Shown: in pieces, positions 8,195-39,657 of the stretch | Position numbering within the stretch: position 1 is the stretch's first letter | Layout: each line of letters starts with the position of its first letter | IMG/VR virus record: IMGVR_UViG_3300028591_000075 | Coordinates: 1-64,000 of that record | Length of the DNA stretch: 64,000 bases | Origin: a virus | Lineage: Duplodnaviria > Caudoviricetes | Direction: 5' to 3' (one strand) | The notes under the pieces: model-generated | Told to the model about the DNA's origin: nothing | Seen by the model: the letters and a program-made list of their open reading frames with translations, nothing else | The model's database searches: none | Made by a program: the position numbers and the translations under genes

Positions 8195-8202
8195 TATAAA
8201 CT
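8195..8202 (+). promoter_or_regulatory. TATAAACT late box
   Basis: 10 nt upstream of the terminase ATG. Confidence 0.7.
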
Positions 8203-8212
8203 GTTCTTTACT

Positions 8213-10096
8213 ATGCCATTCAACGGGATACATAATTTAAGGTCTGCAAACGAGTCCGTGAAACTCGAAATGTGGCAGCTGCAAGAAATCGAGCGCTGCA
8301 CCAAGGACCCTATTTACTTCATCCGGCACTACGTCTATATCAACACGAAGGACGAAGGTACCCAGCTGATGAAGACGTACCCGTTCCAGGACGAGGCAAT
8401 CAGGCGCTTTCTCAAATACAGGTTCAATATCAACCGATGGTCCCGACAGGTGGGTAAATCCACGATAGTCAGGGCCTTTATCCTTTGGTACGCGATGTTC
8501 CACGAGGACCAGCTCATAGCGATGCTGGCCAACAAGCTCATGCTTGCCAAGGAACAGTTGCAGCTCCTGCGCGAATCCTACCTGAACCTCCCCTTCTGGC
8601 TCCAACCGGGCGTGAAACTGTGGAACAAGATGTCCATCCAGTTCGCCAACGGCTGCCGTATCATCATCGCGGCATCATCCTCGGACGGTATTCGTGGTTT
8701 CTCCCCGAACCTCCTGTACCTGGACGAATTCGCGTTCCTGCGCCCCGGCATGGCCGACGAGTTCATGGCCTCCGTGTTCCCGACGATCTCGTCAGGTAAG
8801 AAGACGCGAGTAATCATCACGTCCACTCCGTGCGGCATGAACCACTTCTATCGAATGTGGGAGGATGCCGTTGACGAGGCCACGGCCACCGCCCATGACC
8901 TGCAAGCCAAATATGTCAGGTCCACGGTGCTCTGGAACGAGGTGCCCGGTCGTGACGAACAGTGGGGTCTCGACGAAAAGCTCCGTTGCGGCGAGGAGAG
9001 GTTCCGCCAGGAATACGAATGCGAATTTATCGGTTCCGCCGTCACCCTTATCGACTACCGTACCTTGCAGAATCTGCACCCGGACAAGCCGATGGCCCAC
9101 CCGAGAATACCGGACGACTACCAGCTCCGCGTCTACGGGCGCCCTCTCAATCCGCAGCAGATGGAAATGGACGAATCCGTGTACATCGCGGCCCTGGATA
9201 CCGGCTACGGTATGCGCCAGGACTACCATGTGCTCCAAATCCTCTATGCCAGGTCCAGCACCAAGCTGGAACAGGTGCTCACCCTGTCCTCGAACAGCGT
9301 GACCGTGGAGGACTTCTGCGCGGTTTCCTTCGCCCTGCTCCGCAAGTACCACTTCCCGGCCCTTACCATCGAATATAACGGCGGTTCCGGTGCCCTTGCG
9401 TACCAGACGATGACCGCAGCGTTGCAGTACCCGAACATGGTTGACTACGACAGCTACTTCCGCGGCATGTACTCCACGACCACGACGAAGAGCCAGGCCG
9501 TAATGTTGCTAAAAACTTACATCCAGAAGCACTATCTACTCATCCATGACGAGAAGACGATTAACGAACTCATGTCGTTCACCAGGCCCACCAAGAATAC
9601 CTGGGGTGCTTCCGGCGGCAACCATGACGACCATGTGACCAGCCTGTTCTGGGCCGTTTACCATGCGTACTCCCCGTATTTCCAGGGCAAGATGGAAGAA
9701 ATCTCCTGGGACGATGTTGTCAGGACGGTGTTCGCCCCCGCCGCAGAAATCGCCGATATGCGCAACGTGGCTGAACAGGTCCGCAACCCGCAGATTGTAC
9801 AGGAACAGCGCGGCCTCGCGGAACTATCCGGCAACCAGCGCATGCTCCCGCAGGTTCGCCCGCAGCCGGTACAGGCTACCGTCTATGCCGGCGTTCCCCA
9901 GCAGTACCAGTATGGCCCTCCGCAGGGATACCAGCCGAATATGCAGCAGACGTATCAGGCATATCCGCCTGGCTACAACCACATGCAGCAGCATCCGGCA
10001 TATCAACAACAGCAATACCAGTATCCGGGACGTTACCCGCAGGGCTATGGCTATCCACAGCAAGTGCAAGGGCTCCCAATGGCCTCTCGGGTATAA
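8213..10096 (+). CDS. Terminase large subunit (T4 gp17-like) with Q/Y/P/G-rich C-terminal tail
   Basis: DPIYFIRHY, YPFQ, SRQVGKST (Walker A), LYLDEFAF (Walker B), IITSTPCGMNHFY, FRQEYECEF; nuclease LDTGYG and NHDDHV. Confidence 0.95.
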   Translation: MPFNGIHNLRSANESVKLEMWQLQEIERCTKDPIYFIRHYVYINTKDEGTQLMKTYPFQDEAIRRFLKYRFNINRWSRQVGKSTIVRAFILWYAMFHEDQLIAMLANKLMLAKEQLQLLRESYLNLPFWLQPGVKLWNKMSIQFANGCRIIIAASSSDGIRGFSPNLLYLDEFAFLRPGMADEFMASVFPTISSGKKTRVIITSTPCGMNHFYRMWEDAVDEATATAHDLQAKYVRSTVLWNEVPGRDEQWGLDEKLRCGEERFRQEYECEFIGSAVTLIDYRTLQNLHPDKPMAHPRIPDDYQLRVYGRPLNPQQMEMDESVYIAALDTGYGMRQDYHVLQILYARSSTKLEQVLTLSSNSVTVEDFCAVSFALLRKYHFPALTIEYNGGSGALAYQTMTAALQYPNMVDYDSYFRGMYSTTTTKSQAVMLLKTYIQKHYLLIHDEKTINELMSFTRPTKNTWGASGGNHDDHVTSLFWAVYHAYSPYFQGKMEEISWDDVVRTVFAPAAEIADMRNVAEQVRNPQIVQEQRGLAELSGNQRMLPQVRPQPVQATVYAGVPQQYQYGPPQGYQPNMQQTYQAYPPGYNHMQQHPAYQQQQYQYPGRYPQGYGYPQQVQGLPMASRV

Positions 10097-10121: not shown

Positions 10122-11030
10122 ATGACCTTTCAGGAAGAATTGAAAAATCTGGGTGAACGTTCTGGCGAACGCGCCCTGACCGAATCCATCATCGCGGCAT
10201 ACGAAGCGCTACTCGAATCCGATTCGACTGCGGGAACGAAGACACCTGAAGTGTGGCTTCATGTCGGTAACGGTTATGACAGAGTTCCGCTCAGCGAAAT
10301 CAGTAAGGCAATACGGGACTATGACCGGCTTACCCTATGGTCATTCGACAAGGATATCCTAGACAAGGCTAAATCCGATTTCGATGGCTACTTCAACCCG
10401 TACTACATAAAGACTGGCAAAGTGCTTGAAGAAGACGATCTTCCATACTGGTCACTCGACATCATGTATAATGATGTGGTCAAAGGAAACAAAGCCCAAC
10501 TGACACGCCTGTACAACAAGATTACCGACTATGTCAATGACGGTCCTGAACCCGGAGATGACGGACGAATTGGTACTAGCGACGGAATTCCCGTGTATCG
10601 AGCATCCCCGGAAATGTCCAGAGAACTACGCCAGGCAATGGGAGAATCAGTAGAAACTGTCCCCGTTACCACAAGTATCCCCGACAGTAAAGTGTATGTA
10701 AGTGCCGACGGTTCGCAGGTACTCGGTCTTACCTGGGGCGACGACCCCCAGAACATCGACCCCGATCTTGACGAGGACGACCCGGAAAGCTACCTGGCGC
10801 AGGGCTACAACTGCTACACCTACGCCGACCTCTACGATGTCGATGAAGGATTCGACCTGTCCCAGCTTCCCGCCGACCCATGGGAACTCGATTCCCTCGA
10901 AGGCAAGGGGCTGTCCCTTGTAGCCAACATGGAACAGCACATGTACAAGAAGAGCGAACTCCCGTCCGAAGAAGATGCCCTCGGGGAGTATGTCAATCCC
11001 GACGATGGCTGGAAAGTGGTGTCCAAATAA
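10122..11030 (+). CDS. Hypothetical protein with putative capsid-targeting leader
   Basis: N-terminus MTFQEEL...ALTESIIAAYEALLES; strong RBS; late box upstream. Confidence 0.75.
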   Translation: MTFQEELKNLGERSGERALTESIIAAYEALLESDSTAGTKTPEVWLHVGNGYDRVPLSEISKAIRDYDRLTLWSFDKDILDKAKSDFDGYFNPYYIKTGKVLEEDDLPYWSLDIMYNDVVKGNKAQLTRLYNKITDYVNDGPEPGDDGRIGTSDGIPVYRASPEMSRELRQAMGESVETVPVTTSIPDSKVYVSADGSQVLGLTWGDDPQNIDPDLDEDDPESYLAQGYNCYTYADLYDVDEGFDLSQLPADPWELDSLEGKGLSLVANMEQHMYKKSELPSEEDALGEYVNPDDGWKVVSK

Positions 11031-11031
11031 C

Positions 11032-11039
11032 TATAAACT
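11032..11039 (+). promoter_or_regulatory. TATAAACT late box
   Basis: Upstream of the 11069-13240 operon. Confidence 0.7.
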
Positions 11040-11068
11040 GCAACCGAGTAAGAAAAGGAATTTCACCG

Positions 11069-12040
11069 ATGTTCGAGGAACTTGACGATTTGCTTGCCAT
11101 CACGAGGACCATTGAGGCCTCCCCAATTTCCCATCCGATGATGGAGGCCGAGGAAGATCTCGATGCCGTATATGTCGATTACGGCGACAGCGCTACCCCG
11201 TTCGACACCAAGCCGACGGTGACCAAGGTTACCAGCAAGGTGATCGCTGCCAAGCCAGAACCCGGTGAATGCGCCGGCAATCCCACATTCAAGGACAAGA
11301 AGAAAGGTCCCCTCTTCGAAGACCCAGGTTCCGATGTCATGAGTGATCTGAACCAGGGAGTGGAAGACCTGAAAACCGGCGTCGAAAATTTCATGAACGA
11401 TAGTGGTGAAGGCGGTGAAGCCCAGAAACCGGTTACCAACGAAGCAATGGGACTGAAGCTTACTCTCGAATGCATCGAGCGCGGAATGGGCCGTGACTTC
11501 ATGCGCATGTACCAGCTCGAATGTGCCGGCCAGTGCTGCCCGCAGCAGAACGGGTTCCGTCTTGGGGACGTGGTCCACTGCGGAAACACCCCTGCACTGT
11601 TTGTCGTGAAGAAGGCCGATGGCCAGATGGTCACCGCTGCCAAGCCGACATCCAACCCGAACGAACTTCTTACTTCCAACGACGGCGAATGGCCTACCTT
11701 CACGTTCCGCGCAAGCGAAATCCAGCCGATGCTCAACGCATCCATCGATGACGTGCAGAACATCGTCGGCTTCAACGACCAGGCCATGCCGTTCGACGGC
11801 AGCACCATCGACGAAAGCCCGATGAAGGTTGCCCAGAACGATGCCAAGTGCAACATGGTTGAACGCATTGCCGACAACCTGGACGAGATTCTCGGCATGC
11901 CCTACAAGGACCTCTGCTCCGGCAAGGACCCGAGTTGCAATGTCATGTCGCAGCCTACCGAAGTCGTTGTCATCAACCCGGACGGTTCCTTTGGCGCCAC
12001 TCCCCAATTCGGCGGTTACAAAATCAAGATAGGCGACTAA
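11069..12040 (+). CDS. Cys-containing acidic hypothetical protein, probably virion-associated
   Basis: ATG 11069 after AAAGGA; MFEELDDLL...PMMEA leader; several E-C sites. Confidence 0.7.
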   Translation: MFEELDDLLAITRTIEASPISHPMMEAEEDLDAVYVDYGDSATPFDTKPTVTKVTSKVIAAKPEPGECAGNPTFKDKKKGPLFEDPGSDVMSDLNQGVEDLKTGVENFMNDSGEGGEAQKPVTNEAMGLKLTLECIERGMGRDFMRMYQLECAGQCCPQQNGFRLGDVVHCGNTPALFVVKKADGQMVTAAKPTSNPNELLTSNDGEWPTFTFRASEIQPMLNASIDDVQNIVGFNDQAMPFDGSTIDESPMKVAQNDAKCNMVERIADNLDEILGMPYKDLCSGKDPSCNVMSQPTEVVVINPDGSFGATPQFGGYKIKIGD

Positions 12041-12372
12041 TGGCTCTCCCAAGGATCATATATGACGCTACCTGCCCCGTGTGCACGAACTTCATGCACA
12101 TGATTAGGGCCAAGGTAAAGGACCGTGCGGAATACTACAAGGCCGACGAAGGCGCACGTGATTTCAAGTATGTTGATGCGAAGGGCGCGTCCTATTCCGG
12201 TACGGCAGCCGTTGACAAGATGGCTACCGATTTTCCCGAAATTGGCGATTACCTGTTCATCCTTCCGGAGAAGTTCAGGAAGGCCGGTTTGAAGGCCGTC
12301 TACAAGGTAGCTGGTCCTGTAAGAAAAGTTATTGGCGCAGTGAAGAAAGGTTGCAACTGCGGGAAACATTGA
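12040..12372 (+). CDS. DCC1/DUF393-like thiol-disulfide oxidoreductase
   Basis: IIYDATCPVC (DxxCxxC) at the N-terminus; coupled to the upstream gene by a TAATG overlap; C-terminal GCNCGKH. Confidence 0.7.
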   Translation: MALPRIIYDATCPVCTNFMHMIRAKVKDRAEYYKADEGARDFKYVDAKGASYSGTAAVDKMATDFPEIGDYLFILPEKFRKAGLKAVYKVAGPVRKVIGAVKKGCNCGKH

Positions 12373-12382
12373 GGAGTTCAAA

Positions 12383-12775
12383 ATGAATACCAACCAAAAG
12401 AAATACACTGCTTTCATGGAAAGCGTATGTAAAGAGTTCAACCACCCAGAAATGCTTCCCGCACTCAAAGAAGGGTTCAGGGCTTTCTGCGAAGCAACTA
12501 CCCAAGATGCCCCAGCATTTGAAAGCATCGGTATATATAATACCATGCGTTTGACCACCGACGAAATGCTGCTCCTCCAGGAAATGCGCCAGTATTATCA
12601 GGAATTGTGTCGCGACGGTTTGATGTCCGATTTCCTCCATGGTGGCGGAAACCCATTGAGCGCAGCCGATAACCTTGCCCTGCTGGATGCATTGGTTGAA
12701 ATGTACAACAGTGTTGAAGATCTTCCTGAAGGATTCTTGGCACTCTACCATAAGTTGGGTGGCCAAAAGATTTAA
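12383..12775 (+). CDS. Leader-tagged hypothetical protein, paralog 1
   Basis: GAGGAG RBS; first 38 aa nearly identical to the next gene, remainder unrelated. Confidence 0.8.
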   Translation: MNTNQKKYTAFMESVCKEFNHPEMLPALKEGFRAFCEATTQDAPAFESIGIYNTMRLTTDEMLLLQEMRQYYQELCRDGLMSDFLHGGGNPLSAADNLALLDALVEMYNSVEDLPEGFLALYHKLGGQKI

Positions 12776-12913
12776 CCGTTCAGATTAGGAGAATTCCCAA
12801 TGAATACCAATCAAAAGAAATACACAGCTTTCATGGAAAGCGTTTGTAAAGAGTTCAACTGCCCGGAAATGCTTCCTGCTCTGAATGCAGGGTTCAAGGC
12901 GTTCTGTGAGGCT
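12383..12913 (+). repeat. About 114-bp direct repeat (12383-12496 / 12800-12913) encoding the shared leader
   Basis: Both copies start atgaatacca(a)ccaaaagaaatacac.gctttcatggaaagcgt.tgtaaagagttcaac; similarity stops after ttctg(c/t)ga(a/g)gc. Confidence 0.85.
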
Positions 12914-13240
12914 TTGGATGGACAGCCCGATTCTTGTGGCAGTATAAGTCCAGATGGCCTAGCAATGTACGATGAATTCATGCACGTACTTGATACAAAT
13001 CCTGAATTGATGTCCGTCTCGAAGGATTGGAAAGACTACGCGGCTCGGTTAAAAAGTCGTTGTGAGAAGTGCGTGACAACCCACGACTACAACAAGTCCC
13101 ACTACGATAGCGCAACTGAGTCCTTTGTGCCAAAGGAAACCCATTGGACTCCAGCGTACTTTGATGAGGTAATGACAGACTTGCTGGCCAAAGCAAAAGA
13201 TGGCTCGCTTGGCTGGTCTACTCCCAACTGGGGTGACTAA
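12800..13240 (+). CDS. Leader-tagged hypothetical protein, paralog 2
   Basis: AGGAG RBS; MNTNQKKYTAFMESVCKEFNCPEMLPALNAGFKAFCEA followed by a distinct payload. Confidence 0.8.
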   Translation: MNTNQKKYTAFMESVCKEFNCPEMLPALNAGFKAFCEALDGQPDSCGSISPDGLAMYDEFMHVLDTNPELMSVSKDWKDYAARLKSRCEKCVTTHDYNKSHYDSATESFVPKETHWTPAYFDEVMTDLLAKAKDGSLGWSTPNWGD

Positions 13241-13270
13241 GCATTACGCATTTTGCCCACACCAACAATT

Positions 13271-13295
13271 AAAAAGGCGACCAACCGGTCGCCTT
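13271..13295. terminator. Intrinsic terminator
   Basis: AAAAAGGCGACC-aacc-GGTCGCCTT between convergent operons. Confidence 0.75.
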
Positions 13296-13333
13296 AACTG
13301 TTTTCAGTCTCTGTCGTAGAACCACGAAACATA

Positions 13334-13633
13334 TCACGGCTCCACGCTGTCAACGAACACTCTGATGCGATTGGTCAAGTGGCCCTCAGCATCCTCAATG
13401 TGGATGACATTCGTCTTCATGAAATTATGCTTCGCGAGCACACCCAAAATCGTGTCCACTTTCTGGTCCACCGAATTGTCGGCGGTCAATATATGAACAG
13501 CCTGTTCCAGTTCCGGCTTGCACTCGGCATTGAACCGGGTGTACTGCCGGGATGAACCCGGAGTACCTTCCGCATCATCGATGGTCTCGACATGGATCCG
13601 GCCATCAGTCAATACAAGGTCGAACTTTACCAT
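13334..13633 (-). CDS. Hypothetical protein
   Basis: 99-aa ORF directly after hsp20. Confidence 0.6.
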   Translation of the reverse strand: MVKFDLVLTDGRIHVETIDDAEGTPGSSRQYTRFNAECKPELEQAVHILTADNSVDQKVDTILGVLAKHNFMKTNVIHIEDAEGHLTNRIRVFVDSVEP

Positions 13634-13636
13634 GCG

Positions 13637-14599
13637 CTACCCCAGCCCGATAGAAATTCCAGTGTCCGCACCGGCCACCTTCATCTCGATATGGAGGATG
13701 CCGTCGGCCAGGTTGGCCTTGAACGAATCCGGGGAAGTGTCCACCGGCTTCGGGAAGTAGAACGGGAAGCTGAAATCCCCGAGCAGATGGCGCCCGACAC
13801 CGATGAGTGCCTCGTACTGCGGCTTCTTGCCCTTGTTTCCCTTGCCCTTTCCCTTCGGACGGTACTTCTCGCACATGAGTTCACGATGCCCGCTGACATA
13901 CAGGCTTCCACCGGAGAAGTTCATTTTAAGCTCGCTCTTCTTCACGCCCGGAAGGTCGATGTACAGGTGATACACGCCGTTCACCTCAATCATCTCGTAT
14001 GCCGGGAAGTTCGGGGCGATTGCGATGCGTTCACCCTGCACCAGCTTGATTTCATCGTCGCCCTGCGGCTGCTGGACGGGCTGCTGGTAATACTGCGGTT
14101 GCTGCTGATAGCCGTACGGCTGCTGGTAATAAGGCTGCTGATAGACTGGCTGCTGGTACATAGGCTGCTGATACACGGGTTGCTGGTAGACTGGTTGCGG
14201 TTGAGGCTGCGGAGCCGGCTGCTGGACCTGCTGCACCGGCTGTTCCGCGGGTGCGGCCTCGGGTGCCGGTTGGGCCTGCTGCTGGGGCTGCTGGACCGGC
14301 TGCTGTTGCTGCACGGGCCTCTGCATGGGCCTGCGCGGTCTCTGGCGGTTGACTATCTGCCCAGGCACAATCATGGACGCATTCGCCCTGGCGACCCTTT
14401 CCAGGTCAGCCCTTGCGCTAGTGGAGGCATGGCCCACCATGCGCCCGCTGTCCGCGTCGTACACGGCATCCGACAGGTTTGGTTCATCGCTGTAAATTAG
14501 GGTAGGACCGTCATCTACATTATACATACTGCGCTCCTCGGAGCCGTCGTCTTCCGGCTTCGACTTGAAAAAATTGACGATTTTGGACCAGATGCCCAC
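13637..14599 (-). CDS. Small heat-shock protein (Hsp20/alpha-crystallin) with long Q/P/Y-rich N-terminal region
   Basis: YHLYIDLPGVKKSELKM, LYVSGHRE, GDFSFPFYFP, KANLADGILHIEM. Confidence 0.85.
   Translation of the reverse strand: MGIWSKIVNFFKSKPEDDGSEERSMYNVDDGPTLIYSDEPNLSDAVYDADSGRMVGHASTSARADLERVARANASMIVPGQIVNRQRPRRPMQRPVQQQQPVQQPQQQAQPAPEAAPAEQPVQQVQQPAPQPQPQPVYQQPVYQQPMYQQPVYQQPYYQQPYGYQQQPQYYQQPVQQPQGDDEIKLVQGERIAIAPNFPAYEMIEVNGVYHLYIDLPGVKKSELKMNFSGGSLYVSGHRELMCEKYRPKGKGKGNKGKKPQYEALIGVGRHLLGDFSFPFYFPKPVDTSPDSFKANLADGILHIEMKVAGADTGISIGLG
14060..14320 (-). repeat. Coding low-complexity repeats (QQPVY/QQPY)
   Basis: QPVYQQPVYQQPMYQQPVYQQPYYQQPYGYQQQPQYYQQP. Confidence 0.8.
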
Positions 14600-14605
14600 A
14601 TTAAG

Positions 14606-15418
14606 TTATTCCATATAGCAGTCGCGGAGGACATTGAGGCGCTTGCTGTCCCTCAGCTTCTCTATTGCCTGGTTTTTGATCTTGCGAACCCAGTCCTTGC
14701 TCATGCCGGTATTCGCCGCCTCTTCCTCAAAACTACTTCCATCTCCGTCAAGACCGTACAGAGAACGCAACAATCTGTTCTCGATCGGGGTCAGGACACG
14801 GCTCATCTCGGCTTCAAGGCCGGTTCTCATGTCCTCCATGATGGCATTCTTCTCGGGATTGGCGTCAGATGTCTCGTCCGGGATGACATCGTGCAGCAGG
14901 AACGTGGAATTTTCACCATCCTCTCCCACAGGCATGTCGAGCGAATCGGGGCCCAGGATGGCATTCATGGCCTCCGTGCCGTAGTTCATGTCCACCGGGA
15001 GACCTTCACGGATGGCTTTCAGCACGCGCTTGCGCTGGCGCACGGGCACATGGACCAAGTCCCTGCCCTGGACAATCATGGACATGTGGCGCCGGATTTC
15101 CCAGATGGCAAAGGAGGCGAACTTGACACCGGTACGGTAGTCGTACTTGTAGAACGACTCCATGAGGCCCAGCTTTCCCTCGGTGTAGAAGTCAGTAATG
15201 GGCAACCCAGTGACATTGTGGTAGTCCATAGCGAACTTCAATACCAGCCTGAGGTTAGATTTGATGATTTTGAGCTTGGCGGCTTCCCGTATGCCCTCGT
15301 CCTTGCTCGTATGGTAGGCCTGGAAACAGGCGCTTTCCGCCCGGTGACCTATGATTTCATATCCGGCCACCTCGGCGATGAGTTCTTTTACTCCCGGTTC
15401 AGTTGAATTTACGGGCAA
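14606..15418 (-). CDS. Sigma70-family RNA polymerase sigma factor (regions 2-4)
   Basis: SNLRLVLKFA, EGKLGLMES, YDYRTGVKFASFAIWEI, region 3 SLDMPVGED, region 4 HTH ending WVRKIKNQAIEKLR; TTG start after AGGGG. Confidence 0.9.
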   Translation of the reverse strand: MPVNSTEPGVKELIAEVAGYEIIGHRAESACFQAYHTSKDEGIREAAKLKIIKSNLRLVLKFAMDYHNVTGLPITDFYTEGKLGLMESFYKYDYRTGVKFASFAIWEIRRHMSMIVQGRDLVHVPVRQRKRVLKAIREGLPVDMNYGTEAMNAILGPDSLDMPVGEDGENSTFLLHDVIPDETSDANPEKNAIMEDMRTGLEAEMSRVLTPIENRLLRSLYGLDGDGSSFEEEAANTGMSKDWVRKIKNQAIEKLRDSKRLNVLRDCYME

Positions 15419-15447
15419 AATACACCCCTTTGCATCTTGTTAACTAT

Positions 15448-15476
15448 AATATAACAATTTATCAACACTCTGTCAA
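15448..15476 (-). promoter_or_regulatory. Sigma70-type promoter for the sigma-hsp20 operon
   Basis: TTGACA-17 bp-TATATT on the minus strand; spacer contains TGTTGATAA. Confidence 0.75.
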
Positions 15477-15483
15477 CAGGTAA

Positions 15484-15512
15484 TTGACGAAAATGTAAGA
15501 AAAGTTTATACT
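15484..15512 (+). promoter_or_regulatory. Divergent sigma70-type promoter for the patatin gene
   Basis: TTGACG-17 bp-TATACT. Confidence 0.7.
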
Positions 15513-15569
15513 TTCCGGGGCCGAAAAAAGCTGTCCAACCGTTAAACTACTGAAAAAGGAGATTCTCCA

Positions 15570-16433
15570 ATGAAAAAGCTCGCAATCAGTATCTCGGGTG
15601 GCGGTGCCCTGGGTATCGGCCCCCTCGCATTCATGACCAGGATGGAACAGGACTTCGGAAAGAAGCTCTGTGACATGACTTTTGCCTATGGCGGCACTTC
15701 CACCGGCTCGATCATCGCTGCCGGCCTCGCGGAAGGCCTCCAAGCGCATGAAATCTTCGACCTGTACAAGGGAAACTTGAAGAATATCTTCAAGAAATAC
15801 CCCTGGTACAAAATCCTGGACAGAAAATGCCCGACCTACGACCACACGAACCTCAAAAAGATGCTTCAAAAGACCTTCTCCGGAAAGATAGGCGCATGGA
15901 AGAAGTCCGTGTACTTCCCGGTGACCTACATGAACGGCAAGTCCGTCGAGAAAGTGTGGGACCTCGGGGACAAGGACACCGACAAGTGGTTCGCCGTCCT
16001 CACTAGCTGCTCCGCACCGACCTACTTCGACGTGATTGTCCAGAACGGCATGAGCTTCTGTGACGGTGGCATGTGGGCGAACGACCCAGTGGAAACCCTG
16101 GAATCCGGCTTGACGAAGGCCGGTCACCGTGACTTCAAGATCCTGTCGTTCAATACCGGCATGGACACCCCACATACGGCATGCGGAAACATGTCCAAGC
16201 TCGAGTGGCTCGAATATATCCTGGATGAATGGGTTGCCAGAAGCGGAATGGCCAACTACTACGAAGCATGCGCCCATCTCGGCGAGGAAAACGTGTTCCG
16301 CGCTTCACCGTCGCACAGCAAGAAGATCAAGATGGACAAGACGGACGACAAGACCGTCAACGAGGTCATCGACATCTGGCAGAACTACTATGAAAGCGTG
16401 AAGGGCAAGTTGAAGGAATTCATCAACCGTTAA
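15570..16433 (+). CDS. Patatin-like phospholipase
   Basis: SGGGALG oxyanion motif, GTSTG nucleophile elbow, SCSAPTYF, DGG catalytic Asp; AAGGAG RBS. Confidence 0.92.
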   Translation: MKKLAISISGGGALGIGPLAFMTRMEQDFGKKLCDMTFAYGGTSTGSIIAAGLAEGLQAHEIFDLYKGNLKNIFKKYPWYKILDRKCPTYDHTNLKKMLQKTFSGKIGAWKKSVYFPVTYMNGKSVEKVWDLGDKDTDKWFAVLTSCSAPTYFDVIVQNGMSFCDGGMWANDPVETLESGLTKAGHRDFKILSFNTGMDTPHTACGNMSKLEWLEYILDEWVARSGMANYYEACAHLGEENVFRASPSHSKKIKMDKTDDKTVNEVIDIWQNYYESVKGKLKEFINR

Positions 16434-16749
16434 ACTTGCGCTTCATGTGCTCCGTTACGAAATCGATTTCGTAATCGGCAGCGACTACCTTGCCATTTAG
16501 CATTGCGAATATGAGTGTACCGGTCCTGTTCCGGTACACTTCGCATGTACGGCGGTCCTGGGAACATTTCACCGTAATGACAAAGTCGGAATACATGTTC
16601 CCCGGCCCCGGCTTCAACATCATGCCGGTCTCGGAAACATGCTTGCATTCCGTCTTCATCATTTTAAGGAGTATGCCCATGAACTCCGCCTGGGAAGGCG
16701 TGAGTATCAATGAGCCCTTTATGTCCTTCGGTTGTGACGCCATAAGCAA
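16423..16749 (-). CDS. Hypothetical protein
   Basis: About 106-aa ORF downstream of the fibre gene; probable ATG at 16743. Confidence 0.55.
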   Translation of the reverse strand: MLMASQPKDIKGSLILTPSQAEFMGILLKMMKTECKHVSETGMMLKPGPGNMYSDFVITVKCSQDRRTCEVYRNRTGTLIFAMLNGKVVAADYEIDFVTEHMKRKFNG

Positions 16750-16762
16750 CTATGCCCCATGG

Positions 16763-19579
16763 TTATTCCGTCGGGAACATCTCGAATTCCTTGTAGATGG
16801 TAAACGATGCCGGAGGAGAAGATGAACCGATGAAGCACGTAATGTACTTGGACTGGTCGCCATCATTCCTATATATGAAGGATGCGTGTTTGAGATCCAT
16901 ACTGTAGCTACCCGTCCACATACCACTACCATGCCACAATGCCGATGCCCCAAAGGTAGTTGGCTCTGCCGTAGGATCCTTCGTATCGGTCAGGTAGAAT
17001 CTAATCCACGACGTGGTACCCTGCGAGGCATCACCGCCCGGACTATTACCATATATGATACAATGCGCGGAACCTCTATGATGCGGGGGAACGCGAAGAA
17101 TGGATGTCCCCGTCGTATCCGTTGTACTCATTGTCGAGGTATAACTACAAAGGTACGAAGATACATACGACGACGGGATTATATCAGTGTTGATATACAT
17201 CGAGCCACCGGAACTCGTAGCCAAGTCATACTTACCAAACGTAGGAACCGCAAGAACCCCAAAATTTGTTTCCCATCTGGTGGATGCAACGGTGCCATCA
17301 TGACTAGCTGCAAGAATTTTACCTTTGTCACTGGGGTTAATCGCGGGTGCTAGATATCCCTCAGTAGATATGGATATCATCTTGTCACGGCCAACGAGCA
17401 TATTGCGCCATTTGCCATCACTAGTGATAGAATCAAACGTGTATCCACTGAAGTCAGCTTTCAATAGATGCCAATAACTCGATCCAGCCCCGGAACCATA
17501 CATTATAGTTGCCAGGTTATCAGACCCAATCGCATCGGCCATTGTATTATATTCAGCATCAGTTAAAGACGGTGCACCACTATATTTGATTACGGTATCA
17601 CGTGCTGAAATGTCATTCCACACCACCTTTCCGTTATTTACCACAAGCATTTTTCCCGTCGTACCAGAGGCAAATGCGGGTGCCAAATATCCAAGTTTAG
17701 TGGCAGTTGAAGACGATGGCCATGCTATTGCGGTGCCGCTTTCCTTATATATACCGACCGATGCACCCGACAATGTGTCACTGCATACCAGCCTCATCTG
17801 TATCCCGGCGGGCTTACTTGAATAAGTACCCTCGGTAATCTGGAAAGTGTTCGGCATAGTGATTGTCATCTTAGCCAGGCTAGTATCGCCAGATGCCGCC
17901 TCAGATTTCACCGTAATACCATTACTACCGATAAACTGAACACTCGTGATGAGCCCTTCGGAAAAGCCTGGATTGAATAACAGGTATGTGCTATTGTTTG
18001 TCGTAGTCTGGTTTCCGGTAATGTATGCCCCTGCACTGGACCCGACACGTATCTGCGGGCTGCAGAACCAGAAGCACCCGACCGAGTGGCTCCATGCAAG
18101 TGACCCGTTGCCGACGGCAGTGCGATCAGTTTGCATTTTCAAAGACAATTTACCAAAATCCGAACTACTTGTGCCGCTATCTACATATAAGCCCGTACCG
18201 GTATTAACGAAAATGTAGTTTCCACCATTACCTACATAGCTAGTAGCCAAGCCAGACGCATGCACGTAACTGGAATCGGTTGACGAGGTTATATAGATTG
18301 TCTTCAAGCCATGCGATGTGCTGTCCACATAGCATACGGCATTATCGCCTATGGTGGACACGTTTGTCCAATTACCATTCTTGTTGAGGAAGAGGTTCGC
18401 ATCACCGGATTCGGTCCCGAATGCCGGCCCAGTCTTGACAAAATTGTCATTGTCGGTAATCAGGAGAGCCTTCTTCGTGGTTGCGGCAACGGTCACCTTA
18501 CCGGTACTCGAAATGCTACCATGGTCATGCGTCTTGTTGGCGGTATTGTCAGTGCCAGTAACACCGGTAATGACACCGTCAGCCTCTGTCACAGTCACAC
18601 TGAAATTCGTGCCATTGTATGTCTTAGTTGCATCCAGAGCATTGATTGCCGCCTTCACGCCACCGGATGTAACCGGGTTCGACGAATTGGCAGTCGGAGT
18701 AGTATCCATGTTCGAGACAGTGTAGTCAATCTTGCCATCCGTCTGGGACAATGCGGATATGAACTTTCCGGCGGAAAGCTTGTTGCCATAGTCGAGCTGA
18801 CCGATTGCGTTCTGCACCCCCTTCTGCGTAACCGCCATAGTTTCGTCGGTACCATATCCACTGGTGAGGCGCGTGATACCATCAGCCGATGTTGTTGCAA
18901 GTAGTAACTCATGCGTCCGCATCCCGGTATTCACTATGTGGCCCTGATCATCGTATTCGGCCCACGGTATCTGCAACTCATTGCGGCCTTCGGTATCCTC
19001 GGTTTCGCCTATATACCCGGAACCAACATATTTATTATGCGTAATCGTTAGGGTATCTACATGGTCAATGTCTTCGATGGAGACACCAATCCAACTGTCA
19101 CCAACCACTTTCAAAGTATCCATCGGGCGGTCGGCTGTCACATAACTATCATCCACTGATATACGTCCAAACGCACTCTGGCTGGAAATCTGGAAAAAGC
19201 CACTTGCCTCGGTCCATCGATAGCCAATCCCGGCATCCGGATCAGTAATGTCCACGTAGGTGTATCCATCTTCTCCGGCAATCTCCTGAGTGTGTGCAGG
19301 GTCCTCGTAAAACTTGATTACACCGGATACAGAAACCGCGTATCCATCAATGACCTCGTCGACATATGATGGCAGATATTCGGCTGGAACAAGACCGTTC
19401 TTACCGAGTGGGGCAATACCTGTATATTCCTTTCCACCCACGATTACGGTTGGCCATCCAATGACCTCATCCAGACCAATGTTGTGCCTGGCCATCCACA
19501 TCTCTTCGCTAGTGTTGATTTCACCAGTGGACCGGTCCCTCTGGTCAACGTTGTAGAGAACCTTATTGATCTTGCTCAT
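16763..19579 (-). CDS. Probable tail fibre / receptor-binding structural protein
   Basis: Start MSKINKVLYNVDQ at 19579. Fibre-like motifs GLVPAEYLPSYVDEV, ATTSADGITRL, DTTPTANSSNPVTSGGV, HDHG; S/T/G-rich C-terminal half with lower GC. Confidence 0.65.
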   Translation of the reverse strand: MSKINKVLYNVDQRDRSTGEINTSEEMWMARHNIGLDEVIGWPTVIVGGKEYTGIAPLGKNGLVPAEYLPSYVDEVIDGYAVSVSGVIKFYEDPAHTQEIAGEDGYTYVDITDPDAGIGYRWTEASGFFQISSQSAFGRISVDDSYVTADRPMDTLKVVGDSWIGVSIEDIDHVDTLTITHNKYVGSGYIGETEDTEGRNELQIPWAEYDDQGHIVNTGMRTHELLLATTSADGITRLTSGYGTDETMAVTQKGVQNAIGQLDYGNKLSAGKFISALSQTDGKIDYTVSNMDTTPTANSSNPVTSGGVKAAINALDATKTYNGTNFSVTVTEADGVITGVTGTDNTANKTHDHGSISSTGKVTVAATTKKALLITDNDNFVKTGPAFGTESGDANLFLNKNGNWTNVSTIGDNAVCYVDSTSHGLKTIYITSSTDSSYVHASGLATSYVGNGGNYIFVNTGTGLYVDSGTSSSDFGKLSLKMQTDRTAVGNGSLAWSHSVGCFWFCSPQIRVGSSAGAYITGNQTTTNNSTYLLFNPGFSEGLITSVQFIGSNGITVKSEAASGDTSLAKMTITMPNTFQITEGTYSSKPAGIQMRLVCSDTLSGASVGIYKESGTAIAWPSSSTATKLGYLAPAFASGTTGKMLVVNNGKVVWNDISARDTVIKYSGAPSLTDAEYNTMADAIGSDNLATIMYGSGAGSSYWHLLKADFSGYTFDSITSDGKWRNMLVGRDKMISISTEGYLAPAINPSDKGKILAASHDGTVASTRWETNFGVLAVPTFGKYDLATSSGGSMYINTDIIPSSYVSSYLCSYTSTMSTTDTTGTSILRVPPHHRGSAHCIIYGNSPGGDASQGTTSWIRFYLTDTKDPTAEPTTFGASALWHGSGMWTGSYSMDLKHASFIYRNDGDQSKYITCFIGSSSPPASFTIYKEFEMFPTE

Positions 19580-20225
19580 AGGAAGAAACCTTTTCCTTTG
19601 CCGGGGATACCCACAGCTCCATTTCGTTATCCGACCCGTCAATCTTCAAGTGACCAACCTTCATGTAGCCGCTTTCCTGAACATTCTTCACCGTAGGGGC
19701 ATCGGTCGGATCTACCACGATGAAGCAGGGGGACGCATTCGTATTCAGTTGCAGGAAGAGTTCCTTTGCAACACCGGTGCCTCGGTAGTCTTCCTCGATG
19801 GAGAAGAATGACTGCTGCAGACGGCCTTCCAGGTTGTACCCGGTCTTCAATGAATAGAACCTGATGGGAACATACCCATGATAATCTTCGGCGGACGGGT
19901 CCACCACGTTGGTCACGGCGACCGGGGCCTCGTCACACGTAATGTAGATTACGAGGATGCTTCCCATCAGCTGGTCGATAGTTCTCGGGGTGGCCATCGG
20001 TTCGCGTCCCATAGCCTGTTGCGCGGCGATTACGTTCTTGGAATCATGCGCACGGTCAACCATGTCAGCCAGTTCGGCCAGTGTGGTCGGGTCAATCTCG
20101 CTGGGGTTTTTCGCGTATGCCTTGTAGTGCGAGGCATCGATTGTACCGGTAGGAGCTTCCATATTCATGGAAGCCATCTCGCACAGTGGAAGCATCATAT
20201 CGAGTGTTTCAAACATGTCCATCAT
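19563..20225 (-). CDS. GNAT-family acetyltransferase
   Basis: Motif A FSIEEDYRGTGVAKELF and a motif-B-like region ending ESGY; N-terminal MFETLD...MNMEA leader. Confidence 0.7.
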   Translation of the reverse strand: MMDMFETLDMMLPLCEMASMNMEAPTGTIDASHYKAYAKNPSEIDPTTLAELADMVDRAHDSKNVIAAQQAMGREPMATPRTIDQLMGSILVIYITCDEAPVAVTNVVDPSAEDYHGYVPIRFYSLKTGYNLEGRLQQSFFSIEEDYRGTGVAKELFLQLNTNASPCFIVVDPTDAPTVKNVQESGYMKVGHLKIDGSDNEMELWVSPAKEKVSSYEQDQ

Positions 20226-20812
20226 TAGTACACCCAGCTGTTAGTTTCTTCATCGTAGTGACTTTGTGCAGGTTCAATCTTCGCGGCCATATTGCGCTGA
20301 TGGATGCTTTCATCATCCTCCTCGGTGCAGCACGGAGGGGCACCGAATACCTTGTTCTGCTGGTTCACGGAACGCTCGAACATGCTTGCAAGGCCTTCGC
20401 CGGTGGAGCCATCATCCGGGTGAGATTCCTGCAAAGCCTTCTTGATTGCTATGGCTTCCTTCCATGCCTTTGTATCACGGAAGCTATTCGCCTTCTCGGC
20501 CTCGGTATGCATCTCATCGGAAACACGTGTAGCAAGCTGGCGCACAGTTTCTGCATTCACCCCATTGCCGTCGATACCGCGCATGTAGGACTGCATGTTG
20601 TCAAAGTTTGCCTGGACAGACGGGGCATTGCCGGCACACGCGGTAAGCATGCAGGCAGCCGCAAGGAGCAGCCCCTTCACCGTCTTACCTACACTCTCAT
20701 TAAGGACATATCCGGAATATCCTTCAATCAGTGCGCGACGCACCTCGGGAGTTTCGGACCCGATGCTTTCAAGAAACACGACGTAATCAAGGTGCTGCTG
20801 AACTCCGTTCAT
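20225..20812 (-). CDS. Leader-tagged protein with internal lipoprotein-type signal sequence
   Basis: Start preferred at ATG 20812 (GAGG RBS; alternative 20839). Leader aligns with 12383/12800, then KTVKGLLLAAACMLTAC. Confidence 0.7.
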   Translation of the reverse strand: MNGVQQHLDYVVFLESIGSETPEVRRALIEGYSGYVLNESVGKTVKGLLLAAACMLTACAGNAPSVQANFDNMQSYMRGIDGNGVNAETVRQLATRVSDEMHTEAEKANSFRDTKAWKEAIAIKKALQESHPDDGSTGEGLASMFERSVNQQNKVFGAPPCCTEEDDESIHQRNMAAKIEPAQSHYDEETNSWVY

Positions 20813-20844
20813 ACTGTCCTCAATCAAAAAATCTTTCATGGTAC

Positions 20845-20852
20845 AGTTTATA
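20845..20852 (-). promoter_or_regulatory. TATAAACT late box
   Basis: Upstream of the 20812-16423 gene string. Confidence 0.7.
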
Positions 20853-20944: not shown

Positions 20945-22435
20945 CTACCAGTGCTTGTCTTCGAAGGTCATGCCACCAGGAGCATTCCAGAGTTCGCTGG
21001 AAGTGTCGTGGTAGGAGAGACCCGGTTCGAGGTTGTCACCGGTGAAGGAACCGTTGGATTCCCACGGGGCTTCGTTCAGGTCGATACCAGTAATCACGTT
21101 GTTCACGTTCTTGAACTGGATGATACGATAGAACTGGCCAGCGCCGAGGAGGTTAGCCACGATGGCGTAACGGCTCTTGACGATGAGACGCGGAGAACCA
21201 TCTTCCTGACCGGCGGTCTTCGTGAAGATGTACGGGATGTACGGCATGAAGATGATGCCGCTTTCACCCTGGCGAGGACCCTTGAAGCCAACGAGGGCGT
21301 AGGAGGCGTTCGCGTAGATGTCCTGGTACAGCTTGATCTGACCGTTGAGGAGAGAACCAGCATCAGCCACACCACCAGCAGGCTGCATGGTAGCATCAGT
21401 ACCGAGGTAGCCGTTCGGGATGTAGATACCGTTGTTCAGAGTAGCGATAGCAGCGCCCACGTCCGGAGAGACGATGGCGAAGTTACCGGAACCCATACGG
21501 GTCGTAAGAGCGATCTTACGAGACACGGCGATGATGGTGTTCACGATACCGGCAGCGATGGACTCAGCAGCCCAACGACCCTTGGCAGGACCGGTTTCAG
21601 TGTTGGAGAGGTCAACCTGGATGACCTTTTCACCACCGAGGCGTTCGTTCTGAGCAACCATGATCATGGCCATGAGGATTTCACGGTCAATGTTCTGCTG
21701 GATTTCGAACTGGAGGCCTTCGAGGAGCAGGGCTTCAACGTCCTGACCGTGAGCGGCAGCCATATCCTGCTGGAGTTCCAGAGTATAGTGGCTCTTGATG
21801 GCACGGGTACCGACGCGGATAGCACCGGAAATCACCTTGATGGAGGCCTTCTTGATGTTGTAGCTGAAGTCGCCGTAAACATCGTCACCATCGTTGGTCA
21901 AACCACCGAAGTTGTTGTAGAGCTGGCCGGGAACGCCGAAACCGTTCGGACCCCAAGCAACGCCAGTGCGTTCCTGAGTGCCTTCAGCATAGTTAGAGAG
22001 CATTTCACCAGCGCCAGTGCTGTACGGGTTGAAAGAAGTAGCGAAACCAGTGTGGTCAGCGACGAGGTCGTAACCGATTTCCTGCTTCTGGCCCTGACGG
22101 AAGGCGGTGGACTTCAACGGTTCGTTGTCGTACAGATAACGAAGAGCGAAGTAGATACCCTGCGGAGTAGTCGTCGGGATGACGGCCACAGTGTTCATAG
22201 CCAAGAGTTCAGGGAACTGACGGCGAATGAGCGGCAAGGCATACTGTTGATACTGAGCCACATCAGCGGTGATGTTGGCAGATTCGAACTTGGCACCACG
22301 GTTGACCAAGTTCTGGTTTTCAAGAAGCACTGCGATGGCAGAAGCTTCCCCACGGTTGCGGAGCGGACGACCCAAATTGGATTCGAGCACGGCCTTCCAC
22401 TTACGTGTATTGGACTTGTTCTGGATAACCTGCAT
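20945..22435 (-). CDS. Major capsid protein (T4 gp23-like)
   Basis: KWKAVLE, AVLLENQ, LIRRQFPEL, PQGIYFALRYLY, YTLELQQDM, HGQDVE, IDREI, GNFAIVSP, IFMPYIP, KSRYAIVAN. Start at ATG 22435 after AAAGGT. Confidence 0.93.
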   Translation of the reverse strand: MQVIQNKSNTRKWKAVLESNLGRPLRNRGEASAIAVLLENQNLVNRGAKFESANITADVAQYQQYALPLIRRQFPELLAMNTVAVIPTTTPQGIYFALRYLYDNEPLKSTAFRQGQKQEIGYDLVADHTGFATSFNPYSTGAGEMLSNYAEGTQERTGVAWGPNGFGVPGQLYNNFGGLTNDGDDVYGDFSYNIKKASIKVISGAIRVGTRAIKSHYTLELQQDMAAAHGQDVEALLLEGLQFEIQQNIDREILMAMIMVAQNERLGGEKVIQVDLSNTETGPAKGRWAAESIAAGIVNTIIAVSRKIALTTRMGSGNFAIVSPDVGAAIATLNNGIYIPNGYLGTDATMQPAGGVADAGSLLNGQIKLYQDIYANASYALVGFKGPRQGESGIIFMPYIPYIFTKTAGQEDGSPRLIVKSRYAIVANLLGAGQFYRIIQFKNVNNVITGIDLNEAPWESNGSFTGDNLEPGLSYHDTSSELWNAPGGMTFEDKHW

Positions 22436-22585
22436 TTTGTTACCTTTTGTTTGAGTTAGTGTTCCGTTCGTACTTTCGTGCCCCGAACGGAAGCACTCTC
22501 GAACGATTTCTGACATAATGTTTAGAGTTTTCGATTTTTTACATGAAAAACGGTGCAAAAACGTGCACTGAAACTGGCAAAAACG

Positions 22586-22627: not shown

Positions 22628-24340
22628 CTACATCAGGCCACCGAGACCACCGGCGTCGCCACCGCCACCGCCACCGGCATCTCCACCGCCTTCACCTTCG
22701 CCACCCCCACCGGCTTCGCCATAGAGTTCATCGTTCTTTTCCTCGCGGAGCCAAGTACGGATCTGGTTATATTCCTCATCACTGACCCTAAGGCCCTTCA
22801 TGAGAGCGAACTTCCTAGGCAGCATGCCGGATGGATTATCCTTGGAGCGGCAGTGCTTGGCCATGAGGTCGAAGGTATTGAGCCTGGTGTTCCAGATTTC
22901 GCTTTCGATGAAGTTCTGGAACCCGTTGGACCTCTTGAACCTGACGGAGAAGTTGATTTCGCTCTTGATGGAGTTGTCCACATTCTTCATGGTATTCAGG
23001 ACCATGACGAACAGGCGGACCATGATGGCCTCCAAAGGTGTCTGGTAACGCTGAATAAGTGCGGCAAACGATACTTCGGACTGGGTGACTTCGCCAATCT
23101 TGCCCTGGGTGTAGTTCTGGTTGTCACCGGCAAGGGCCGTGATACGTCCCGGAGGCACCATGAGGGAGTTGACAAGGTTGCGCTTGAAGAATTTAAGGTC
23201 ATCGATGTTCTGCAGGTTGTTACCGCCCTGCATCCTTTCGATGGAGGAGCCGGTACGACCCTGGGAGAGACTAACGATGTAGTGTTCGGTCAAGCCGATT
23301 GCCTTACCGAAGTTCGTCACTTCACCGGTCTGGGAGTTGTAGTCGAGCTTTCGAGAGAAGACCTTGGCCTGGTCCTTCATGTACTTCTCGGCCTTATCCT
23401 TCGGCATGTTACCGGTATCAACCTTCATGACCAGCTTTTCCTGACCCCAGAGGATACGGTACATGACGACGGAGTCTTCGATGGTATTCAACTGATTGTA
23501 CGGCTTCATTGCCGGCTCGAGAATAGATCTGGGGTCGTTGATGCCGCCGGGGCCAGTCATGTCAAGCGAAGCATAGAGAATCTGGTTCGGGGAGAAGTCC
23601 TTGTAGTTCTTGCCACCGTTGCGCATGTTCATCGGGCCCGTCTGCATCTGGCGGTAGCCGATAATCAAGTCATCCTGGTAGATAACAATCATGTTCTCCT
23701 CACGGAGCATCTTCACACCGAGAATCTGGCTCTTGTTCTCGTCGAACTCAACTTCAAAGAAAATTCGGCCATGGATACACAGGTAGCGCATGTAGTTCCA
23801 GCCGTTGATACGGAAATTGAGGAGTTCGCGGAGAACCTTGCGACGGAACGTCGTGTGGAGGATGTCCTGGGTTGCATCACCAATCTTGGCATCCGGGTCG
23901 ATTTCCAGTGAGCAGGATTCGCCCATATCGTCCTTATAGGCAGCCTCGTTACAAATCTGGATGATGGATTCGTTCACTTCGGAACGACCAGCGACCGTCT
24001 CGTATTTCAGGGAACGCTCGACGTTCTTGCGCCAGTAGAGGTCACATTCCTTCTGGGCAACCGCGTCCTGGATTTTGTCCGGATCCAGCGGCTCGGTGGA
24101 AATGCCGAGCATAGGGGTGTAGGTGCTATATCCGTCCGGGGTGGCCCCGTTCGGGAACAGCATGTCGTTCATGCCCTGGGCGACCGAGTTCCTGGAAGCA
24201 TTGACCTTGCGCTCCGTATCTATACGGTTGAAAATTCGGTCAAAATACTGCCCTTTCGGGTTGCCGATGCCGTAATTGCGCTCGTAGTTGAGAAGTCTCG
24301 ACGCGAGGGTTTCCGGTGTCTTGTTCTTCTTGAAAAGCAT
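22628..24340 (-). CDS. Portal protein (T4 gp20-like)
   Basis: IHGRIFF, SILEPAMKPYNQLNTIEDSVVMYRI, VDTGNMPKDKAEKYM, NIDDLKFF, LMVPPGR; Gly-rich tail; start at ATG 24340. Confidence 0.92.
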   Translation of the reverse strand: MLFKKNKTPETLASRLLNYERNYGIGNPKGQYFDRIFNRIDTERKVNASRNSVAQGMNDMLFPNGATPDGYSTYTPMLGISTEPLDPDKIQDAVAQKECDLYWRKNVERSLKYETVAGRSEVNESIIQICNEAAYKDDMGESCSLEIDPDAKIGDATQDILHTTFRRKVLRELLNFRINGWNYMRYLCIHGRIFFEVEFDENKSQILGVKMLREENMIVIYQDDLIIGYRQMQTGPMNMRNGGKNYKDFSPNQILYASLDMTGPGGINDPRSILEPAMKPYNQLNTIEDSVVMYRILWGQEKLVMKVDTGNMPKDKAEKYMKDQAKVFSRKLDYNSQTGEVTNFGKAIGLTEHYIVSLSQGRTGSSIERMQGGNNLQNIDDLKFFKRNLVNSLMVPPGRITALAGDNQNYTQGKIGEVTQSEVSFAALIQRYQTPLEAIMVRLFVMVLNTMKNVDNSIKSEINFSVRFKRSNGFQNFIESEIWNTRLNTFDLMAKHCRSKDNPSGMLPRKFALMKGLRVSDEEYNQIRTWLREEKNDELYGEAGGGGEGEGGGDAGGGGGGDAGGLGGLM

Positions 24341-24344
24341 ATCG

Positions 24345-24545
24345 CTACCTTCCGTAAATGATGACCGTGCCCCCGTAGGTCGCGGCGAAGTTCGCACGCC
24401 GCACGGTATTGAAATAGTCCTTCAATTCTTCGTCGCAGATATTGCGAGCCAACATGCGCTTGCCATGCATGACGCATTCGACTATATAGGAGAAGTCCCC
24501 GAAATCCACTTCGAAAAGTGGCAATCCGTTGTACACCCTACGCAT
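24345..24545 (-). CDS. Small hypothetical protein
   Basis: 66-aa ORF from ATG 24545, overlapping the upstream stop. Confidence 0.55.
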   Translation of the reverse strand: MRRVYNGLPLFEVDFGDFSYIVECVMHGKRMLARNICDEELKDYFNTVRRANFAATYGGTVIIYGR

Positions 24546-39524: not shown

Positions 39525-39657
39525 GTTAAATCCTCTGGAGATTTTTTCTTATGCTGGAAGTTTATAGTGTAGGACAAAAAATAAATTTGCTCAATTTACC
39601 ACAAAAAGTCCAAATTACACTATAAATCTATATCTGACAGTAAAAAGGCATTTAATC

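Follow-up and report, generated by a model that had tools for sequence, protein, structure and literature searches.

Two adjacent genes of an uncultured phage, starting at positions 12383 and 12800 of the stretch analysed here (the window: 64,000 nucleotides of IMG/VR record IMGVR_UViG_3300028591_000075) and named, like all genes below, by their start positions, carry the same 38-residue N-terminal leader in front of completely different protein bodies (payloads A and B). The same leader is found on 141 clusters of metagenomic proteins, where it is combined with about 72 groups of payload. We suggest, with moderate confidence and on the strength of sequence patterns and of analogy with phage T4, that the leader is a cleavable propeptide targeting a swappable cargo cassette to the prohead. 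A 253-kb viral contig, 67% complete by CheckV's estimate, has the window as its first 64 kb; to judge from its genes, it comes from a very distant relative of T4.

One leader on many unrelated payloads

The leaders of gene 12383 (130 aa) and gene 12800 (146 aa) are identical at 34 of 38 residues (BLASTP 2e-23). The DNA similarity of the two genes sets in at the ribosome-binding site and start codon and ends right after codon 38, beyond which payloads A and B gave no BLASTP alignment at E<=100; both the common N-terminus and the complete divergence behind it, pointed out in a preliminary description of this DNA, are borne out. A strict hidden Markov model (HMM) of the leader, run against all six-frame open reading frames (ORFs) of the genome, returned exactly three significant copies, namely these two and a third at 124420-124878 on the minus strand, and the same three are the only significant HMM matches when both helices of the leader are considered. 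The peptide of the third copy is 54% identical and written in different codons, and the gene has no neighbour of the DCC1-like type that stands beside the window pair (Table 1). For proteins 12383 and 12800, AlphaFold2 predicts helices at residues 3-18 and 22-39 (predicted local distance difference test score, pLDDT, ~70-80) followed by a disordered linker, and low-confidence folds for the payloads (mean pLDDT 67 and 54).

A search with the leader only in a set of 5.8 billion proteins gave 37 clusters, with leaders 82-100% identical on proteins of 117-238 aa, and a 40-column leader profile compared with 1.84 billion representatives gave the 141 clusters at E<=1e-3, 75 of them at E<=1e-10, so that matches are not limited to the 12383/12800 pair. 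The leader starts at the N-terminus, or at most 8 residues from it, in 153 of the 163 proteins that were fetched; most of the others still have a methionine opening the leader, and therefore look like gene-call fusions or contig-end fragments, and two are internal copies. BLAST comparison of the payloads separated 19 groups among the first 40 proteins and 72 groups, including 51 singletons, among 145 payloads of at least 50 aa, which confirms the earlier proposal of a modular leader with interchangeable payloads. Modules can also be stacked, as in P0016 and P0027, where an extra module stands ahead of payload A. Searches of Pfam and PHROGs found no family for either window payload, nor for 27 and then 115 leader proteins, the exceptions being a few zinc ribbons and one uncharacterised PHROG, and ESM Atlas look-ups with payload A and with the commonest payload returned nothing usable.

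A variable slot and the selection acting on the leader

Near-identical DNA and tblastn searches of a phage collection turned up no relatives, either of the region or of protein 12383, and two IMG/VR scans found none of proteins 12383 and 12800. Relatives with flanks 80-96% identical are present in metagenome assemblies, one of them on a 474-kb contig. Five related loci share one gene order: TerL, a gene of 157 or 302 aa, a gene of ~320 aa, the DCC1-like gene of 110 aa, one or two leader genes, a convergent gene of 99 aa, Hsp20, a sigma factor and patatin, with the DCC1-like gene immediately 5' of the leader gene or genes in all five. The flanks are 94-96% identical, and blastn homology stops at 12495-12497 or at 12913, which are the last leader codons, and returns 9-26 nt past the stop codon at 13240. 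Three different payloads follow the position-2 leaders of the window, L006b and L008b, whose DNA is 96% identical. The claim of a swappable cassette can be sharpened to a single syntenic slot with exact breakpoints, and the locus combines conserved flanks with variable leader-bearing ORFs, as does the hypervariable internal protein (IP) locus of T-even phages. Gene 10122 is a second locus in which variation starts exactly at the end of a tag, since its inserted module is present here and in L005, is absent from L006, L008 and L009, and homology breaks at 10222, right after the tag. Among the leader proteins, P0002 and P0012 have different payloads and an identical tail (..DNNKGEQKF), suggesting that some 3' crossovers fall within the last codons rather than after the stop.

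The leader had also been described as conserved in its DNA, a point that has to be revised, since the conservation lies at the level of the protein. Pooled over eight leader alleles, the proportion of differing synonymous sites (pS) is 0.35 and that of non-synonymous sites (pN) 0.044, giving a pN/pS of 0.12, with pS reaching 0.55 among alleles; selection acts on the leader at the level of the protein. The window pair differs at 54% of its synonymous sites (pS 0.54), which exceeds the difference of the DCC1-like gene between the most distant lineages, and the two copies are therefore old paralogues kept constant as peptides, with conservation of the DNA as a by-product; the longest run of identical DNA between the two leaders is 17 nt.

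Recombination has nevertheless taken place inside the leader, as is evident from the mosaic L008a allele, in which codons 1-25 resemble position-1 alleles (2 vs 8 differences) and codons 26-33 resemble position-2 alleles (1 vs 7). The leader of L009 is likewise nearer to other lineages than the flanks of L009 are (pS 0.09 vs 0.50). The suggestion that the repeated leader acts as a recombination handle receives direct support from the mosaic allele, and our data support the view that the handle is a consequence of the shared leader and not the reason for its conservation. The codons for A-F-M-E-S of the leader (12410-12424 and 12827-12841) form a perfect palindrome of 15 nt, GCTTTCATGGAAAGC. 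Seven close alleles retain it, L009 has a broken form and the third copy lacks it; it is probably incidental.

These observations bear on two rival explanations. The exact breakpoints at the 3' end, the mosaic leader, the palindrome and the position of the L009 leader could be taken to mean that the stretch is conserved chiefly for its DNA, as a recombination site, as a regulatory or translation-initiation region or as an endonuclease target, and that its translation is incidental, but the codon analysis largely refutes this: constraint falls on the non-synonymous sites, the third copy keeps the peptide in other codons without the palindrome, and distant metagenomic members conserve residues, not bases. 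We regard the idea as very improbable. Still less probable is a simple tandem duplication with C-termini that have diverged past recognition, for which one may cite the adjacency and similar size of the two genes and the faint resemblance that payload A bears to the third copy's payload (14/39 identities, E 0.11). Homology of the C-terminal parts was looked for and payloads A and B are unalignable, the similarity drops from 89% to none abruptly at one codon, and orthologous position-2 leaders bear three payloads despite flanks that are 95% identical.

Junction motif, head genes and upstream box

At the junction between leader and payload (n=163), P3 is F, L, Y, M or I in 161 proteins, P2 is Cys in 149, P1 is Glu in 160 and P1' is A, S, T or G in 159, and free variation begins immediately past this [F/L/Y]-C-E / [A/S] ending. 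By its pattern at P3, P1 and P1', the junction is compatible with a Glu-specific site of the gp21 type, as had been anticipated. The same 7-mer stands at leader residues 8-14 (Y-T-A-F-M-E-S) and 32-38 (F-K-A-F-C-E-A), so that the leader reads as two tandem units, each closing in a Glu/small-residue site. This 7-mer, [YF]-x-[AVT]-hydrophobic-hydrophobic-E-[SGA], has 12 occurrences in the proteome (shuffles: 0.8), 10 of them in the first 40 residues. The doubled motif marks 14 of 233 N-termini but 2 of 1223 internal windows (shuffles: 0.39), an excess of >30-fold; both patterns were chosen post hoc. Genes 981, 10122, 12383, 12800 and 20812 and the gp22-like protein are among the 14.

Site-like motifs, in which Glu is preceded by a hydrophobic residue at P2 or P3 and followed by S, A or G, average 0.75 per 100 aa over the proteome; the corresponding densities are 4.2 (gp67-like protein), 2.7 (gp22-like protein), 3.9 (protein 12383) and 2.6 (third copy). 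The gp22-like protein has 8 such motifs and T4 gp22 (269 aa) has 10. In some distant leader proteins with unrelated payloads (P0024, P0042, P0043, P0093, P0097, P0152, P0163) an extra L-M-E-G or L-T-E-G lies 5-10 residues past the junction, and may be an additional cut site.

The genome encodes a T4-type head set consisting of a gp23 capsid protein, portal, gp21-family protease and gp22-like core protein, as the earlier comparison with T4 implied. The capsid protein is <30% identical to that of every phage in the comparison collection, and its N-terminal region ends in K-F-E/S, aligning near the segment of T4 gp23 with L-T-E/A.

Several other genes had been credited with looser versions of the leader, and these are of unequal standing. 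Gene 20812 has the best case: its whole 195-aa protein, including start and tag, is conserved in 40 clusters, and its tag, which scores weakly against the leader HMM (E 0.003 among 249 genes, 0.08 in six frames), aligns in register with the leader profile (hhalign probability 73%, E 3e-5, 28 columns), making it a probable distant homologue. Behind this tag, 13 of the 19 signal positions, the lipobox Cys among them, are invariant in 13 homologues, and a cut at LNE/S would put the signal 2-3 residues from the new N-terminus. An alternative start at 20839 was dropped, as 6 nt separate it from the upstream box and the gene calls of most homologues begin at the 20812 position. In gene 39524 only the helix-1 motif matches the leader, internally at residues 153-166 (hhalign probability 32%, E 5e-4). 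The N-termini of 981 and 10122 show no homology to the leader profile and have only the 7-residue motif in common with it; they are not the same leader. No Pfam or PHROGs family was found for genes 981, 10122, 11069, 19563, 20812 and 39524.

Fourteen copies of the sequence TATAAACT lie in the window, where 0.8 would be expected, and the whole genome has 39; for 36 genes a copy is present no more than 120 nt upstream. The box lies 17-34 nt upstream of 981, 10122, 20812 and 39524, and it also precedes TerL and the gp67-, gp21- and gp22-like genes. The statement that all leader-bearing genes lie downstream of such a box is correct for those four and does not extend to 12383 and 12800, which have none directly before them and are the third and fourth genes of an operon behind the box at 11032. 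The 39 genomic copies share no conserved -35 element, as is also the case for T4 late promoters. At TerL, a box at 8195-8202 (plus strand) is just 10 nt ahead of the annotated ATG at 8213, suggesting that the transcript is nearly leaderless or that the TerL start is the Met at 8270.

Among the neighbouring genes, TerL has a tail of ~100 aa rich in Gln, Tyr and Pro (9780-10096, plus strand), and the Hsp20-like protein has a long Gln/Pro/Tyr-rich region (13637-14599, minus strand). In the relative L008, an IS605 OrfB/TnpB (Cas12f-like) gene (8695-9723, minus strand) lies between the sigma-factor and patatin genes. A second, weak match to Peptidase_S77 (23.6 bits, below cut-off) at genome positions 207089-207427 (plus strand), outside the window, may be a degenerate protease paralogue.

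Table 1. Features of the leader slot, of other tagged genes and of the head genes (window positions unless marked as genome positions)
Feature	Position	Strand	Remarks
Leader copy 1	12383-12496	+	38 codons; ends F-C-E-A
Payload A	12497-12775	+	92 aa, orphan, mostly helical
Leader copy 2	12800-12913	+	38 codons; position-2 allele
Payload B	12914-13240	+	108 aa, orphan; other payloads instead in L005, L006, L008, L009
Start of 3' homology arm, and bidirectional terminator-like hairpin	arm 13249-13266; hairpin 13274-13295
TATAAACT box of operon 11069 > 12040 > 12383 > 12800	11032-11039	+
First gene of operon	11069-12040	+	323 aa, orphan; TIEA and MMEA site-like motifs at N-terminus
DCC1-like thiol-disulfide oxidoreductase	12040-12372	+	110 aa, CPVC; Pfam PF04134 E 1.3e-4, under curated cut-off
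TATAAACT box upstream of 981	956-963
N-terminus of gene 981	981-1085	+	VFES ... YSAIFEG; motif-level likeness only
TerL	8213-10096	+
Tag of gene 10122	10122-10220	+	33 residues, LTES ... YEALLES; short motif only
Inserted module behind 10122 tag	10221-10676	+	~145 aa
TATAAACT box upstream of 20812	20845-20852	-	33 nt upstream of ATG 20812
Tag of gene 20812	20693-20812	-	40 residues, FLES ... LNES
Lipoprotein-type signal/transmembrane segment, gene 20812	20636-20692	-	K-rich start, hydrophobic core, lipobox L-T-A-C
gp23-type capsid protein	20945-22558	-	Pfam Gp23 PF07068, 2e-63
N-terminal delta-like region of capsid protein	22283-22435	-	ends KFE/S
Portal	22628-24397	-
Internal leader-like stretch of gene 39524	38949-39068	-	residues 153-192: ..FKAFIES .. 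AQFEA
TATAAACT box upstream of 39524	39559-39566
gp21-family protease	genome 135972-136712		outside window; Peptidase_S77 PF03420 53.8 bits; phrog_207 4e-33
gp67-like gene			48 aa; same head module as gp21-family protease, outside window
gp22-like core protein			295 aa, coiled; directly after protease gene; assigned from position and composition only

Proposed mechanism, rival readings and known systems

If the leader is a cleavable prohead-targeting propeptide, the leader-payload proteins would be made late in infection from a structural-gene operon, and the two-helix leader would hold them to the assembling scaffolding core. The gp21-family protease would then cut after Glu37 (F-C-E/A), and probably also after Glu13 (F-M-E/S), and the payload, freed inside the head, may later exit with the DNA. 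The leader would in effect consist of two tandem units resembling the capsid-targeting sequence (CTS) of T4, [Y/F]-x-A-F-x-E and then [S/A], and payload ORFs would be exchanged by recombination between the leader as 5' arm and the conserved downstream flank as 3' arm. Core binding, cleavage, packaging, ejection and an anti-defence function are all steps that we infer.

A number of observations weigh against this scenario. The phage is uncultured, and both loading and cutting are read from its sequence. Most payloads are acidic (median pI 4.8), in contrast to the basic internal proteins of T4, and the leader has 38 residues against 10-19 for the T4 CTS (PMC9026906), with which it has no demonstrable sequence homology. 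Within the leader Cys16 and Cys36 are near-invariant and Cys or His is common at position 21, features not described for the T4 CTS, and the conserved cysteines could point to a folded functional domain. The lipoprotein-type signal that follows the tag of gene 20812 is odd for a capsid cargo. The likely maturation site of the capsid protein, K-F-E/S, has its hydrophobic residue at P2, not P3, so that the exact specificity of the protease is not fixed by the leader junction pattern. Finally, the TATAAACT box also stands before the gene upstream of DNA polymerase, and can for this reason be called late only tentatively.

The main rival, which we consider unlikely, takes the leader as a small folded two-helix domain, possibly dependent on cysteines or a metal, that serves as a common intracellular adaptor by binding a single partner from host or phage or by oligomerising, with the C-termini giving specificity and no loading into the capsid. 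The helical hairpin predicted with moderate confidence, the invariant Cys16 and near-invariant Cys36, the constant presence of a thiol oxidoreductase of the DCC1 type next to the slot, the acidity of the payloads and a length that is great for a T4-type CTS would all suit such a domain. It leaves unexplained, however, the constant hydrophobic-Cys-Glu-small ending with free variation right behind it, and the recurrence of the same short motif at the N-termini of the gp22-like, gp67-like and capsid proteins; the third copy does without a DCC1-like neighbour, and a fixed metal site is unlikely, since position 21 can also be Arg or Met and distant members have Ile, Leu or Val in place of Cys36. 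A redox link between the leader cysteines and the CPVC-containing oxidoreductase directly upstream of the slot is possible. A leader that is removed by the protease and has no targeting role, whether it keeps the payload inactive until head maturation or competes as a substrate that times the protease, strikes us as more doubtful still. It would account for the two site-like motifs of the leader, for the further ones just after it in some members (LMEG, AFES) and for the high density of such sites over the whole proteins, but a protease of the T4 type is described as active within the core of the prohead (PMC5694885), so that its substrates must be there anyway, and a mere inhibitory peptide would not need 85-100% identity across 70 unrelated payloads.

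The best-supported reading is that the leader works like the CTS and internal proteins of T4 without being a sequence member of that family. In T4, the CTS on IPI, IPII, IPIII and Alt is removed by the prohead protease gp21 (Mullaney and Black 1996, reviewed in PMC9026906, PMC3012670), residues 4 and 7 mattering for targeting and 8 and 10 for processing, while Asp in place of the P1 residue prevents processing and leaves targeting intact (PMC9026906), and the internal proteins of T-even phages are diverse defence proteins sharing only the conserved CTS (PMC3012670). Like the CTS, the leader is N-terminal, portable and common to unrelated proteins, ends in hydrophobic-x-Glu/small residue and occurs in a phage with gp21-, gp22- and gp23-type head genes. 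The N-termini of T4 IPII and IPIII read M-K-T-Y-Q-E-F-I-A-E-A, of which the 10-residue MKTYQEFIAE is the published CTS (PMC8442874), and their Tyr-x-x-Phe spacing recurs in the leader (M-N-T-N-Q-K-K-Y-T-A-F-M-E/S), although 10 residues are too short to score. The leader differs in its two helices or units with two candidate cut sites, its conserved cysteines and its acidic payloads, and in being known from sequence data only. The slot in turn resembles the T-even IP loci in its conserved flanks, its variable ORFs each with a leader and its exchange at gene boundaries (PMC3012670, PMC9026906). It differs in adjoining TerL and the DCC1-like gene, in holding far more payload groups (~72) within one clade, and in its additional stacking of modules, seen in P0016 and P0027 and in the insert of gene 10122.

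Proteases of T4 (gp21), phiKZ and SPN3US cut after Glu at x-x-E, and the propeptides often have several sites (PMC9026906, PMC5694885); in phiKZ, 201phi2-1 and SPN3US, head and ejection propeptides are cut at S/A/G-x-E by gp175- or gp245-type proteases (PMC5694885, PMC9026906). These propeptides are longer and have several Glu sites, as the leader has, their cargo is ejected into the host, and the SPN3US paralogues gp53 and gp54 have identical N-termini on diverged bodies. They belong to another lineage, however, are 20-130 residues long, and include no single portable module on unrelated proteins; their P3 residue is small, whereas that of the leader is aromatic or Leu. A further parallel is found in polymorphic toxins and effectors, which combine a conserved trafficking N-terminus and a sharp junction motif with a variable C-terminus. 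The leader proteins resemble them in having a conserved (putative) delivery part, an invariant junction and cassette-like swapping of C-termini, but the leader is a phage-encoded tag of 38 aa, no toxin/immunity pairs were seen, and delivery, if any, would be via the capsid.

The T4 CTS is the standard example of how a phage head is loaded with varied defence-countering proteins, and it is known from a handful of proteins. The system described here may follow the same logic at a larger scale, with one leader, one slot and dozens of unrelated orphan payloads in an uncultured clade of 250-470-kb phages, and the codon-level evidence indicates that selection preserves its leader as a peptide and that the leader itself is a place where recombination occurs. 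A more far-reaching and quite tentative view is that the leader is a tag for capsid loading and release that defines a hypervariable effector slot, the ~70 orphan payload families being an injected arsenal, for example against host defences or for host takeover. If this were true, the leader would provide a bioinformatic handle on the injected effectors of uncultured jumbo phages, and could serve as a portable tag by which such capsids are loaded with foreign proteins. Should the tag load cargo, its payloads would make up a catalogue of candidate injected effectors that are invisible to homology search, and would give a view of how payload genes are shuffled.

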